Shown one piece after another: positions 80 to 46,705 of a stretch of DNA of 64,000 nucleotides. The translations under genes and the position numbers were made by a program. How positions within the stretch are numbered: position 1 is the first letter of the stretch; each line of letters starts with the position of its first letter. The notes beneath the pieces are model-generated. The model saw only the letters and a list, made by a program, of their open reading frames with translations, was not told the origin of the DNA and did no database searches. Origin of the DNA: Thermodesulfobacteriota bacterium (GTDB lineage: Bacteria; Desulfobacterota; Desulfobaccia; Desulfobaccales; 0-14-0-80-60-11); assembly GCA_040757175.1 (NCBI GenBank), contig JBFLXM010000080.1:213-64212 (forward strand). Direction: 5' to 3'.

Positions 80-176
80 GAAGATTAAAGGAAGATTAAT
101 CGAAGATTAAGATGTTCTAATTTTTGAAAAAAACTTAAACATCCGGCGTCTTGCTTTGCGCCTTTGCGCCTTTGCG
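80..176. repeat. Two short-tandem-repeat blocks just downstream of the histidine-kinase stop: (GAAGATTAA+2 nt)x3 at 80-110 and (CTTTGCGC)x3 at 154-176
   Basis: Read directly: gaagattaa at 80, 91, 102 (period 11); ctttgcgc at 154, 162, 170 (period 8); non-coding. Confidence 0.8.
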
Positions 177-27360: not shown

Positions 27361-27595
27361 CTTTGAAAAGTTCAAAGTTCAAGGTTCAAAGTTTTTTTCC
27401 TCGTTCCCAAGTTGCACTTGGGAACGAAAATGGAGGCCAAGCTCAGCTTGGCCACTATTGCGTTCCCAAGCACAGCTTGGGAACGAGTAAAAAACCCTCT
27501 GGTGGGGCGGGCCTCCGTGCCCGCCGAGCAACAGGCGGCCAGAGACGGCCGCCCCACCAACTTGGAACCTGGAACTTGGAACTTGGAACTATTCT
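27361..27595. repeat. Mosaic intergenic element: octamer STR block, three REP-like hairpins, a nested GC hairpin, then a second octamer STR block
   Basis: (GTTCAA(A/G)G)x3 at 27369-27392; cgttcccaag-N5-cttgggaacg at 27401-27427 and 27461-27485; ggccaagctcagcttggcc at 27435-27453; ggtggggcgg...ccgccccacc at 27501-27558; (CTTGGAAC-type octamers)x4 at 27559-27590. Confidence 0.85.
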
Positions 27596-34313: not shown

Positions 34314-34464
34314 GTTCAAGGTTCAAAGTTCAAAGTTCAAAGTTACATATACTGCTCTTGACGGTTGGTCATGATTCATGGGTTAAGCCGCTAAGCTAAG
34401 GTACTGTTGAACCATGCCCCCGCCTACACTAACCTTGAACCTTGAACTTTGAACTTTAAACTTT
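34314..34464. repeat. Inverted octamer-repeat arms (GTTCAAAG)x4 / (CTTTGAAC)x4 enclosing an ~86-nt core
   Basis: Left arm 34314-34344, right arm 34431-34464 (reverse complement); the right arm overlaps the last codons and stop of mpl. Confidence 0.85.
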
Positions 34465-37571: not shown

Positions 37572-38699
37572 TCATTGTCTAAACCTAATGCCAAATCCCA
37601 GAGCCTTCGACGCCGCTTCGTGGAACCGGGGCCTAAAGCTCTGGATTTTGCTCTTGTCGTCCCGGCCCAGATGTACTCTGTTAGTGAGCAAGATTACCAT
37701 CTGCCCCGATTCCAGGTCCAGCCAAAAAGAGGCGCCGGTAAAACCCAGGTGGCCCACACTCCGGGGGGAGAAGTAACGGCCCGGGCTGCTTTGGGAGTGA
37801 TTGGGGCCGGGCGTGTCAAACCCCAAAGTGCGGCTGCCGCCGGGGACGGGGGTAAGGAAGAGACGCACCATTGCCGGAGAGAAAGGCCCGGTTTCCTCCC
37901 CCAGATAAGCCCGGTAAAGCGCGGCCAAAAGTTGCCACACCTCCCCGGCGGCGCCGAAGAGTCCGGCGTGCCCGGCCACTCCCCCCCCGGCCCAGGCGTT
38001 TTCGTCGTGAACTTCCCCAAAGATATTACGGCCAGGGATGAGGCCCTCTTCGCTGGCCGCAAAGGTTAAAGAGTCGCCTCCGGGCTGCTGGCGAGGGCAA
38101 AAACCCAGGAGCGGCAGCCCCAGGGGCCGGTAAATTTCCCGGCGGCAGAAGGAATCCAAATCAAGGCCCGCCGCGGTCTTCACCACGGCCTGGAGGAGCA
38201 TATAGCCCAGATCGCTGTACAGGGTTTGGGCGCCGGCAGGATACTCCAAAGGCTCGACCGCAGCCAACCGGGCAGCCAGACCGGGACGGTCAGGCTGAGG
38301 CGCGGCCAGGATCTGCTCATAAAAGGGCCGCCAGGCCGGCAGCCCGGCCTGATGGGCCAGGAGGCTGCGGAGGCTGAGGCCGCGCTTGTCCGGGGGCAGC
38401 CATTCCTCCTGGAGGACCTCCCCCAGGGTGGTCTCCGGGGTGAACTTCCCCCGGGCCGTCAAAAGCATCAGGGCCAGGGCCGTGGCCAGGGGTTTGGTGA
38501 GGGAAGCCAGGTCGAAGACCGTGGCCAGGGTGGCGGCCGCAGCCTCCGGGTCCAGGGAGACCCGGCCCGCTGCGGCCTCCCAGAGCTTCTCTCTCCCCAA
38601 GCCCACTACGGCCGTGGCCGCGGTATAGACGCCTTGTTGAAAACCTTCTTCCAGAAGGCGATTAAGAGGAGACCAGAGGCCAGACGCATTATCGCTCAT
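37572..38699 (-). CDS. Serine hydrolase of the beta-lactamase/PBP4* family
   Basis: 'SLTKPLAT' (SxxK) and 'YSDLGY' motifs. Start set at 'MSDNASGLW' (ATG 38699); the ORF-track extension runs into the repeat arm. Confidence 0.8.
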   Translation of the reverse strand: MSDNASGLWSPLNRLLEEGFQQGVYTAATAVVGLGREKLWEAAAGRVSLDPEAAAATLATVFDLASLTKPLATALALMLLTARGKFTPETTLGEVLQEEWLPPDKRGLSLRSLLAHQAGLPAWRPFYEQILAAPQPDRPGLAARLAAVEPLEYPAGAQTLYSDLGYMLLQAVVKTAAGLDLDSFCRREIYRPLGLPLLGFCPRQQPGGDSLTFAASEEGLIPGRNIFGEVHDENAWAGGGVAGHAGLFGAAGEVWQLLAALYRAYLGEETGPFSPAMVRLFLTPVPGGSRTLGFDTPGPNHSQSSPGRYFSPRSVGHLGFTGASFWLDLESGQMVILLTNRVHLGRDDKSKIQSFRPRFHEAASKALGFGIRFRQ

Positions 38700-38713
38700 G
38701 GCTGACCAAAGAA

Positions 38714-38847
38714 TTAACCACCAAGACACCAAGAACACCAAGATTCACCAAGATTCACCAAGGAATAATTATGAGCGTCCTGGCTTTCCAGGACGCTCAT
38801 AAAATTTTTCTTTGTGCTCCTTGGTGTCTTGGTGTCTTGGTGGTTAA
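38714..38847. repeat. Perfect 21-bp inverted arms built from CACCAAGA octamers
   Basis: ttaaccaccaagacaccaaga (38714-38734) is the exact reverse complement of tcttggtgtcttggtggttaa (38827-38847); the left block continues as (CACCAAGA-like)x5 to 38763. Confidence 0.9.
38769..38812. terminator. Rho-independent-type hairpin (15-bp perfect stem, CTTT loop) downstream of ddl
   Basis: ttatgagcgtcctgg-cttt-ccaggacgctcataa at 38769-38802; T-rich run aatttttcttt on the plus strand and ttattcc on the minus strand. Confidence 0.6.
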
Positions 38848-38874
38848 TGTATTTCCTCAACCCCTCTGGCGTTC

Positions 38875-39807
38875 TCAAGGCTTTTCCAGCGCCAATTCAA
38901 TCAGGCGGTCCAACAATTCCGGAAACTCGATGCCCGCGGCCTGGGCCCCCTGGGGAAAGAGGCTGGTGGCGGTCATGCCCGGAATGGTGTTGGTCTCCAA
39001 GACATAGACCTGCCCGTCGCGGATTCTCATGTCCGTGCGGCTGTAGCCCCGGCAGCCCAGGGCCTGGTGGGCGGTGACGGCGCATTTTTGCGCGGCCGCG
39101 GTGAGTTCCGGGTCCAGGCGGGCCGGGCAGATCTCCGTGGTGGCTCCGGGCAGGTATTTGGCCTCATAGGAGAAAAACGTGTACGAAGCGGAGGGCAAAA
39201 TCTCCACCAGGGGCAGGGCCTGGAGTTGGGCGTTGCCCAGGACCCCCCCGGTCACTTCCGTGCCGTCGATGAATTCCTCCACCAGCACCCGGTAATCGTA
39301 TTTAAAGGCCGCAGCCAGGCCCTCTGCCAATTCCTTTGGGCTCCGGGCGATGGTAATACCTATGCTGGAGCCTTCATTCACGGGCTTGATGACCGCGGGC
39401 AGCCCCAGGGTTTCCTCGATCTCCCGGGGGCTGGGGGCCTTATTCTGGGTGAAAACCAGGGCGTGGGGCACCCTGAGGCCCGCCTGGAGATAGAGGATTT
39501 TGCTCAGTTCCTTGTTCATTCCCAAGGCTGAACCCAGGACCCCCGACCCCTGGTAGGGGACTTCCAGGAGGTCCAACATCCCCTGAAGGGTGCCGTCTTC
39601 TCCCCCCCGGCCATGCATGATGATCAGGGCCACATCCAGTTCCGGCGCGTCCCGCACCAGGCGCTCCAGATCATTTAAGGGGTCGTAGCGCCGGATGTCG
39701 TATTTATCTTTGTTCAGGGCCTGATAGACCTGCTCGCCGCTCTTCAAGGAGACTTCCCGCTCCGCGGATTTGCCCCCGGCAATGAGGGCCACGCGCATCT
39801 TTTTCAT
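38875..39807 (-). CDS. ddl: D-alanine--D-alanine ligase
   Basis: 310 aa; 'GGKSAEREVSL', 'HGRGGEDGTLQG', 'EIN/LETNTIPGMT' Ddl signatures. Confidence 0.9.
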   Translation of the reverse strand: MKKMRVALIAGGKSAEREVSLKSGEQVYQALNKDKYDIRRYDPLNDLERLVRDAPELDVALIIMHGRGGEDGTLQGMLDLLEVPYQGSGVLGSALGMNKELSKILYLQAGLRVPHALVFTQNKAPSPREIEETLGLPAVIKPVNEGSSIGITIARSPKELAEGLAAAFKYDYRVLVEEFIDGTEVTGGVLGNAQLQALPLVEILPSASYTFFSYEAKYLPGATTEICPARLDPELTAAAQKCAVTAHQALGCRGYSRTDMRIRDGQVYVLETNTIPGMTATSLFPQGAQAAGIEFPELLDRLIELALEKP

Positions 39808-44289: not shown

Positions 44290-44304
44290 ATCGACTCCAT
44301 CTAT

Positions 44305-44444
44305 CAGTAGCCAGTAGTCAGTGGTCAGTTTTCAGTTTTTGGTTTTTGGTTTTTGTGACACTGATCACTGATTACTGATCACTGATTACTGATTACTTAT
44401 CCCTAACCACTGGCCACTGACCACTGACCACTGACCACTGGCCC
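44305..44444. repeat. Array of 20 consecutive heptads in unbroken 7-nt register
   Basis: CAGTAGC CAGTAGT CAGTGGT CAGTTTT CAGTTTT TGGTTTT TGGTTTT TGTGACA CTGATCA CTGATTA CTGATCA CTGATTA CTGATTA CTTATCC CTAACCA CTGGCCA CTGACCA CTGACCA CTGACCA CTGGCCC; ends 1 nt before the stop of the upstream gene. Confidence 0.9.
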
Positions 44445-45491: not shown

Positions 45492-45551
45492 AATTTTTTA
45501 TTATCACCTTTTCGAATTCAGAGGTCATTTTACCAGGAAAAAAGAAAAAAA

Positions 45552-45634
45552 GGGGAAGAGGGGAAAAGGGGAAAAGGGGAAATGCCAAAAATTAGCATTC
45601 TTCTTCCCCTTTTCCCCTTTTAACCTTTTCCCCC
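45552..45634. repeat. Imperfect hairpin whose arms are (GGGGAAAA)n / (TTTTCCCC)n octamer repeats
   Basis: ggggaagaggggaaaaggggaaaaggggaaatgc - caaaaatta - gcattcttcttccccttttccccttttaaccttttccccc. Confidence 0.85.
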
Positions 45635-46612: not shown

Positions 46613-46705
46613 CGGTTTTCGGTTTTCGGTTTTCGGTTTCTGATTCTGATTCTGGTTCCCAAGCTGTGCTTGGGAACCCCTTTGGCCGCAAAGCTGAGCT
46701 TTGCG
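46613..46705. repeat. Mosaic element: (CGGTTTT)x4, (TGATTC)x2, then two REP-like hairpins
   Basis: Heptads from 46613; ggttcccaagctgtgcttgggaacc at 46654-46678; cgcaaagctgagctttgcg at 46687-46705. Confidence 0.85.

Follow-up and report, generated by a model that had tools for sequence, protein, structure and literature searches.

Several classes of short intergenic repeat bear on the element described here. Closest are two sets catalogued in Geobacter bemidjiensis (Table S6 of Aklujkar et al. 2010, PMC2996986): the 'Nonanucleotide repeats' TTT[WCCTCTGTGR0-1Y0-1]nGTGAG (Gbem_R9001-R9068) and the 'Octanucleotide repeats' YTT[TCTTTGCG]3TGAGG (Gbem_R8001-R8034), most of which occur in pairs that sit 3' of a first gene and 5' of its neighbour (PMC2996986). 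Analogous paired octamer and heptamer sequences in G. metallireducens were described as class 1-3 'global regulator sites', with regulators of the IHF/HU type proposed (Aklujkar et al. 2009, PMC2700814). Chunjie, a MITE (miniature inverted-repeat transposable element) of G. uraniireducens, carries 21-bp terminal inverted repeats and 9-bp direct repeats (PMC3184786). The element considered in this work lies between ddl and a gene for a beta-lactamase-fold serine hydrolase, within a stretch of 64,000 nucleotides (hereafter the window) from a Thermodesulfobacteriota bacterium (assembly GCA_040757175.1, contig JBFLXM010000080.1, positions 213 to 64,212 of the forward strand). It consists of two inverted arms – each an array of phased 7-nt cores – that enclose a hairpin.

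The ddl element is one member of a family of approximately 57 composite palindromes in this genome, and arms of the same kind bracket genes for GxxExxY proteins across many phyla, with the type of arm following the clade of the nuclease. Most likely, then, the element represents a barely described kind of selfish element in a gene-less form, rather than a one-off regulatory structure. The family has previously been catalogued in Geobacter and never explained; a link to GxxExxY genes is not made in the papers searched.

The family was defined by a regular-expression search of the whole genome (4.12 Mb, 85 contigs), which delivered 56 copies; one further copy with a degenerate arm brings the number to approximately 57. 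The 21-mer arm of the ddl element is therefore not unique in the genome: related copies abound. Each copy is built from a AAAGATTNAC edge, three to five CAC[A/C][A/G]AG cores phased at 8, 9 and 10 nt, a variable GC hairpin and a mirror arm; the number of units is almost always 4+4. Length ranges from 104 to 127 nt, with the exception of one 78-nt copy (with a short centre) and one 210-nt nested copy. Solo arms number only three (two if only true solo arms are counted), and nowhere in the genome are the arms of a pair more than 250 nt apart or placed around a transposase gene. Copies have at their centre a near-perfect hairpin of 12-20 bp between A/T flanks; these centres fall into several recurring classes, and many are textbook bidirectional terminators.

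The arm consensus is aAAAAGATTNAC-CACAGAG-R-CACAGAG-RR-CACAGAG-NTN-CACAGAG-AA. CACAGAG is the commonest core across the family, and the various sub-types are linked by copies that mix CACCAAG, CACAAAG and CACAGAG units; the ddl copy, whose left arm begins AACCACCAAGACACCAAG... in agreement with other arms of the family, belongs to the CACCAAG/CACAAAG sub-type. In most copies the spacers between cores measure 1, 2 and 3 nt in fixed order, resulting in periods of 8, 9 and 10 nt. The arms themselves are direct arrays of cores and are not self-complementary. Conservation reaches approximately 12 nt outward of the first core, where the 56 copies share the edge AAAAGATTNAC, including TT[A/C/T]AC. 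The initial annotation had taken TTAA to be the terminus of the element, and had suggested that TTAA might be a target-site duplication. Neither suggestion held: the family edge is TT[A/C/T]AC with conservation extending beyond it, and, apart from isolated copies, no flanking direct repeat is evident at any boundary offset (offsets 2-19 in the 56 copies: a 4-nt repeat in at most 2/56, a 5-6-nt repeat in at most 1/56 and an 8-9-nt repeat in 0/56).

Judged by crude gene calls, copies nearly fill the spacers in which they reside, and the stop codon of the upstream gene is usually 0-12 nt from the edge. According to the same crude gene calls, 35 of the 56 copies occupy co-directional spacers, 16 convergent and 5 divergent: convergent spacers are over-represented 2.4-fold (16 observed vs 6.7 expected, p = 6e-4). 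Of 47 parsable copies, 35 have GA as the second spacer of one arm and AG as that of the other (the two match in just one copy), and because of this the stem formed by the arms carries a fixed G-T plus A-C mismatch, and with it an intrinsic polarity. This polarity shows no relation to the direction of transcription (9 vs 9). For the 35 co-directional copies the RNA of the sense strand is the more stable in 17 and that of the antisense strand in 18 (p = 0.92), while G-U pairs number 115 in sense and 111 in antisense. Given that both folds and G-U counts are equal on the two strands, nothing indicates selection on one transcribed strand.

A second family (family B), with CGCAAAG/CGCCAAG cores, is represented by approximately 50 arrays in the genome, many of them solo. 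One such solo arm, CTTTGCGcCTTTGCGcCTTTGCG, is found at window positions 154-176 and fits the G. bemidjiensis sequence [TCTTTGCG]3TGAGG. The two families meet in the nested copy (C9:18204-18413), where a CACCAAG-type element has a CGCCAAG/CGCAAAG palindrome inside the loop of its central hairpin: palindromes can thus insert into, or replace, each other's centres. More generally, the genome contains more than 1,200 tandem arrays with a period of 7-10 nt, among which heptamers dominate (AAAACCG, approximately 100; ACTGCTC, approximately 85). Arrays are found in the window at 34314-34464, 44290-44444 and 45540-45630; many arrays are inverted pairs, and at orthologous spacers heptamer palindromes and elements of the ddl family take each other's place from one species to the next.

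Judged by consensus, the uncharacterised nonanucleotide repeats that were listed for G. bemidjiensis in 2010 correspond to the ddl family, and the octanucleotide repeats to family B. The consensus from this genome, CTCTGTGnnnCTCTGTGnnCTCTGTGnCTCTGTGGTNAA, fits the published nonanucleotide consensus; the ddl copy has CTTGGTG cores. In a panel of 61 related genomes the arm pattern is present in all nine members of the genus and in four other genera of the same taxonomic family, and in none of 24 genomes from other families. A scan of one genome per species found the exact pattern in more than 116 contigs, and hosts among the matches listed include Acidobacteriota, Beta- and Alphaproteobacteria (Pseudomonadota), Planctomycetota, Bacteroidota, Chlamydiota, KSB1, Cloacimonadota, other Desulfobacterota and Methanothrix; contigs from metagenome-assembled genomes of Desulfobacca acetoxidans are among those with copies. 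So patchy a distribution – across domains, and for a pattern of 34 nt whose spacing is fixed – implies that the pattern has moved horizontally.

In two of the loci selected by arm pattern, one from Rhodocyclaceae (L136) and one from Rhodospirillales (L085), the arms enclose not a hairpin but an open reading frame (ORF) of approximately 125 aa that encodes a GxxExxY protein. Loci selected in this way contain 10 GxxExxY hits in 0.83 Mb, six of which adjoin arms, as compared to approximately 49 hits in approximately 190 Mb for the panel of relatives. Further independent samples also point to a strong association: all 20 PF13366 loci taken from relatives are flanked by inverted phased repeats, and all six homologues chosen by protein similarity alone (from Planctomycetales, BRC1, Terriglobia and others) have arms of the AACCACCAAG type. 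In these six the 5' arm reads AACCACCAAGnCACnAAGnCACCAAG and the 3' arm, CTTGGTGnCTTGGTGnCTTGGTGGTGA, follows directly past the stop codon. Each arm of the ddl element is identical at 25 of 27 positions to the arms that flank GxxExxY genes in unrelated bacteria (L241 and L239).

The 5' arm often codes for the N-terminus of the protein (MNHQDTK.PR). Simple cassettes (L241, L239, L240, L236 and, from G055, L208) have the 5' arm within the annotated GxxExxY ORF, with N-termini such as MNHQDTKAPR, MNHRDTETQR and ..PQRHGVTEK.., and in these the repeat consequently also serves as coding sequence and start region.

A further observation concerns the correspondence between arms and proteins. Four types of arm were distinguished: A (CAC..AG), B (CGC.AAG), D (CGCCGAT) and E (CACGAAT). 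When placed on a tree of 24 proteins, arm type requires 3 changes, the minimum, compared to a mean of 10.5 for shuffled labels (0 of 200 shuffles were as low). Moreover, GxxExxY paralogues within one genome each retain their own type of arm.

The GxxExxY family, with proteins of approximately 130 aa, comprises at least 8,000 clusters and goes by no other name than 'GxxExxY protein'; a 2012 survey of PD-(D/E)XK proteins listed PF13366 as being of unknown function, with multiple transfers between bacteria and archaea, and our search of the literature on GxxExxY, PDDEXK_3, PF13366 and TIGR04256 found no description of flanking repeats. The homologue in this genome matches TIGR04256 at 2.6e-43 and PF13366 (PDDEXK_3). 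Invariant residues in the family include an Asp and two Glu, those of GxxExxY and of an ELK motif (whose K is nearly invariant); together they correspond to a PD-(D/E)XK site, and the D...ELK motif is intact in the protein encoded here. A search of the PDB with the sequence of the nuclease gave no match. The AlphaFold2 model (pLDDT 92.6) finds its best fold matches in Cas4 SSO0001 (4ic1) and lambda exonuclease, and also in the nuclease domains of AddAB and MGME1, although these matches are weak (E ~2e-3, TM ~0.5).

This homologue is the product of the sole PF13366 gene of the genome (C54:31798-32145), which lies between two complete elements of the ddl family (family A) that share the same centre. 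The chance of the only such gene falling between two copies is approximately 4e-4. Comparison of this spacer among relatives shows the gene in this genome (G000), G004, G003 (where it is inverted) and G009 (a member of another genus); a single gene-less element in G002, G006, G007 and G008; and, in G001, one element with a replaced centre. One and the same site thus exists in a gene-bearing and a gene-less state. Either the gene is deleted or flipped through recombination between the copies on its two sides, or a unit consisting of gene plus element integrates into an element already in place; deletion is the more economical reading, given that a genome from another genus (G009) has the gene. 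As regards family B, a GxxExxY gene flanked by B arms is present in the relatives G002, G009, G010 and G013; no such gene was found in this genome, despite its approximately 50 B arrays.

The ddl element itself conforms to the plan of the family (Table 1). A repeat search of the window returned two 22-nt inverted arms that are 100% complementary (38713-38734 / 38827-38848), one base pair longer than the perfect arms reported in the initial annotation, and, between them, the 15-bp stem that it had noted (38769-38783 / 38788-38802), again 100% complementary and closed by a 4-nt loop. Its estimate of about five units in the left block was correct, whereas that of about three on the right was one short. 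At up to two mismatches the 16-mer CACCAAGACACCAAGA has 3 matches in the window, where shuffles predict 0.01. Folding energies of the whole spacer are -89.5 kcal/mol for RNA (z = -10.8) and -52 kcal/mol for DNA (z = -12). A scan against Rfam produced only sub-threshold chance matches to hairpins of the miRNA type, none of them near the gathering score.

Table 1. Positions of the parts of the ddl element and of the two adjoining genes (window coordinates).
Feature	Position	Strand	Remarks
Left outer edge, AAAGAATTAAC	38708..38718		Family consensus AAAAGATTNAC (column consensus of 56 copies, both ends); 'TTAA' is internal to the edge
Left arm	38719..38762		Five CACCAAG cores; spacers 1, 2, 3, 3 nt
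Centre	38763..38809		A/T-rich linker, perfect 15-bp GC-rich hairpin (loop CTTT, 38784-38787), T-rich linker
Right arm	38810..38842		CTTTGTG plus three CTTGGTG cores; spacers 3, 1, 1; mirror of the left arm with one unit fewer
Right outer edge, GTTAATGTATT	38843..38853		Family consensus GTNAATCTTTT
ddl (D-Ala-D-Ala ligase), upstream gene	38875..39807	-	Pfam PF07478 at 2.9e-55, plus PF01820
Beta-lactamase-fold serine hydrolase, downstream gene	37572..38699	-	Pfam PF00144 at 2.5e-34

The 47-nt centre is a hairpin segment without an ORF, and for this reason the element was filed as a gene-less derivative and not as a cassette. The suggestion in the initial annotation of a foldback-type structure with no coding capacity accords with this, the element being a dispersed non-coding repeat. 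On the side of ddl, 26 nt separate the stop codon from the 22-nt arm. On the other side, the ATG of the PF00144 gene (38699-38697) is preceded by the left block, as first noted, although the distance from the TTAAC edge to the ATG is 14 nt and not 15. The same ATG lies 14-20 nt past the T-rich edge of the element across nine species, and no recognisable Shine-Dalgarno (SD) sequence precedes the gene in any of the nine species compared (window 38683-38713 and the orthologues L028-L036).

A simple terminator scan found the central hairpin to be terminator-like on both strands, in keeping with the terminator proposed at the outset. The stem of 15 bp includes 8 G-C pairs and is followed by the tails TTATTCCTTG (minus strand) and AATTTTTCTT (plus strand); the U tract on the strand of the genes is weak. 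These features suggest that the hairpin probably doubles as a bidirectional intrinsic terminator, or as a stabiliser of the 3' end, after ddl. If transcription read through, the arms would pair as a stem of approximately 130 nt just before the SD-less start of the PF00144 gene.

Comparison of orthologous spacers shows that the element has been inherited vertically in all nine species of the genus. Each of the eight congeners has an element between ddl and the PF00144 gene, with CACCAAG/CACAAAG cores in three to five units per arm and a homologous centre, TATGGGCGTCCTGG..CCAGGACGCCCATA; the site is gene-less in all nine. The hairpin is 93% paired over the nine species, and its covariation score was reached by only 5 of 500 shuffles. 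Both partners have changed in three pairs: one from G:C to A:U in this genome, one from G:C to A:U in G004 and G007, and one from U:A to A:U in G004. In G003 (L036) an insertion of approximately 300 nt stands in place of the left arm, with the hairpin and right arm kept; this insertion (at the orthologue of window 38700-38770) contains palindromes of the CCCCCTCTCCCC..GGGGGGAGAGGG type, which belong to another family of repeats.

Four more sites, on contig C36, are occupied in nearly all species. The type of core at a given site varies by species (CACAGAG, CGCAGAG or CACCAAG), and in some of them unrelated heptamer palindromes stand in for the centre or for the entire element; G005 has no element at one of the orthologous sites. 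The central hairpin nonetheless tends to remain specific to the locus. Taken together, the orthologous sites show that the elements are old residents whose arms and centres are swapped as modules. As to the ddl locus alone, what is found there is an old, fixed copy of the repeat, one that probably doubles as a terminator.

Among alternatives, the structure could be a locally evolved RNA element of the ddl operon – a compound terminator, an attenuator or an mRNA-stabilising hairpin – with no mobile or selfish history. Its position just past a stop codon, the terminator-like hairpin kept with compensatory changes in nine species, the very stable RNA fold and the preference of copies for the 3' ends of genes all agree with this. 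However, local evolution cannot explain the arms, because the same arms, with the same 1/2/3 spacing, are found at approximately 57 loci and in many phyla, archaea included. Also against it are the equal folding of sense and antisense strands, the fixed GA/AG mismatch, A/C differences between paired units that are not wobble-compatible and, in G003, the loss of the left arm from a site that has kept the hairpin: a purely local origin is improbable. Cores conserved even where the arms do not pair, regular phasing at 8/9/10 nt and the lack of strand bias speak for paired binding arrays for a nucleoid-associated or global regulatory protein (IHF/HU-like), as was proposed for G. metallireducens (PMC2700814). 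Yet at a single orthologous spacer the cores differ between species, or are replaced by unrelated heptamer palindromes, and many cognate regulators would then be needed. Arm type moreover tracks the clade of the adjacent GxxExxY gene, and the family spans phyla and domains, unlike a lineage-specific regulon. We give binding arrays little credence.

A classical MITE mobilised by a transposase (TTAA as terminus or target duplication), or a repetitive extragenic palindrome (REP) – singly or paired as a REPIN – moved by a REP-associated tyrosine transposase (RAYT), would account for the inverted arms at the ends, the small size, the A/T-rich edges and the large number of copies, and for the empty orthologous site in G005. 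Such an origin is nevertheless very improbable: target-site duplications of 4 to 9 nt are lacking at any offset, the edge is TT[ACT]AC and not TTAA, no arm pair surrounds a transposase and solo arms are just three. A classical MITE was accordingly rejected (no target duplication and no transposase parent in the genome), as was identity with Chunjie, whose 9-bp direct repeats contrast with the lack of target duplication here. Partnership with a RAYT was also rejected: Y1/RAYT genes (PF01797) occur in 47 of the 61 genomes irrespective of arms, with no phyletic link, and the RAYT-like Y1 transposase gene that was examined (G000:C28:17494-17730) is flanked by a different REP, GTTCCCAAGC-N3-GCTTGGGAAC. 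That REP and the RAYT-like gene form a conventional REP/RAYT pair beside the family studied here; the REP has 81 copies in the genome, including window 27462-27484 and 46655-46677 and the region G000:C28:17340-18036. Lastly, the palindromes might be a neutral by-product of replication slippage and hairpin template-switching, in a genome rich in repeats that resemble short tandemly repeated repetitive (STRR) sequences. The abundance of arrays of 7-10-nt period, mostly heptamers, and the variation from three to five units between species at the same site speak for slippage, but it generates a uniform period, whereas the 1, 2 and 3-nt spacers, the outer edge and the GA/AG asymmetry are fixed and common to dozens of loci. 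Neither identical arms in other phyla nor the coupling to one family of genes is accounted for, and slippage as the source is highly unlikely.

We thus return to the ddl element as a member of a dispersed family, a gene-less counterpart (REPIN- or MITE-like) of a small GxxExxY cassette, and the bearer of a probable terminator centre: taken as a whole, this is in our judgement a likely account. From the association of genes and arms we infer that the GxxExxY nuclease acts on the arms. The phased cores would serve the nuclease as a recognition array; arms and intervening DNA would be spread, converted or deleted, whether by the nuclease or through recombination between copies; and the element at the ddl locus would be an old, now immobile, resident. 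A broader proposal is conceivable, if somewhat short of probable: that GxxExxY proteins are the enzymes of undescribed minimal selfish elements, or of long-term REPIN-like symbionts, of bacterial phyla and some archaea. According to this proposal a nuclease similar to Cas4 and lambda exonuclease would recognise phased 7-nt cores and spread or convert the inverted arms (by cleavage and repair or by integration of a circle, with element-gene-element and single element as the two outcomes), leaving behind dozens of gene-less palindromes that hosts reuse as terminators between the genes of operons; the ddl element would be a domesticated relic.

Several observations weigh against a gene-less form of a GxxExxY element. 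The link between gene and repeat is one of association only. Approximately 57 A-type and approximately 50 B-type arrays share the genome with a single GxxExxY gene, and G001, G002 and G005 retain A-type copies without an intact A-type gene: copies evidently persist without the enzyme. The C54 gene lies between whole elements and not between the two arms of one element, and a simple picture in which hairpin replaces gene is therefore incomplete. Orthologous sites are mostly stable across the genus, and recent mobility is not shown by them. Nor do the near-identical copies in G019 offer clean evidence that arms move, being part of a larger repeat: as proof of recent mobility these copies (approximately 17) were rejected, since they are parts of a 225-nt composite.

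The G019 composite is present in at least 17 copies of approximately 95% identity (L213-L229; L233:1608-1832 and 2353-2577). It consists of a short-centre CACCAAG/CACAAAG element flanked by a direct repeat of approximately 30 nt (..AAGCCGGAACCAAAA..), and two inverted copies bracket a gene for a ModE-like regulator. Nothing was found for it in Rfam.

Should the GxxExxY nuclease have the arms as its substrate, a very large family of proteins of unknown function would gain a role, and an intergenic repeat of Geobacter, Desulfobaccales, Acidobacteriota, Betaproteobacteria, Planctomycetota and Methanothrix would gain an origin. Together with REPIN/RAYT there would then be two cases in which a single-copy enzyme coexists with a population of gene-less palindromes, here with a different catalytic fold, and the cassettes may rank among the smallest autonomous units known (approximately 450-500 bp). 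The elements also matter for annotation: they fill the spacers of operons, supply terminator-like hairpins, overlap stop and start codons and create spurious ORFs.

How, then, does the ddl element compare with systems already described? The nonanucleotide repeats of Geobacter share with its family the core (CTCTGTG / CACAGAG), spacers of 1-3 nt and the ...GTGGTGA end, and likewise form inverted pairs that take up the spacer between the 3' side of a gene and the 5' side of its neighbour; their octamer companion, [TCTTTGCG]3TGAGG, is present in this genome too. The ddl copy differs in being a CACCAAG variant in a genome of the Desulfobaccales type, and the Geobacter papers offer a catalogue and a suggestion of regulator binding, with no mention of an associated gene or a link to GxxExxY. 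The STRR and heptanucleotide tandem repeats of cyanobacteria are alike in their short period, their location in spacers and their frequent formation of hairpins between the genes of operons; here, in contrast, a fixed number of cores, a fixed series of spacers, defined edges and a partner gene are found, and not a head-to-tail microsatellite. MITEs such as Chunjie, Nezha and Correia are also small, A/T-rich and intergenic, with inverted ends and very stable predicted RNA hairpins that are tolerated inside operons, and the ddl element has the terminal inverted repeats, the small size and the lack of an ORF by which MITEs are recognised; unlike them, it has a centre that is variable and locus-specific, and no transposase parent.

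The comparison that extends furthest is with REPIN/RAYT systems (PMC3116915, PMC3337134). The enzyme here is a PD-(D/E)XK nuclease of approximately 130 aa (Cas4- or lambda-exonuclease-like) and not an HUH Y1 transposase; the repeats are arrays of phased 7-nt cores and not REP hairpins of 20-25 nt with a conserved tetranucleotide head; and, unlike in REPIN/RAYT, the action of the enzyme on the repeats is suggested by association. Nevertheless, both systems have many short, gene-less palindromic copies in spacers, together with one or a few vertically inherited enzyme genes flanked by copies of the repeat. In both, too, repeat type co-varies with the clade of the enzyme, and copies are long-lived at fixed sites.

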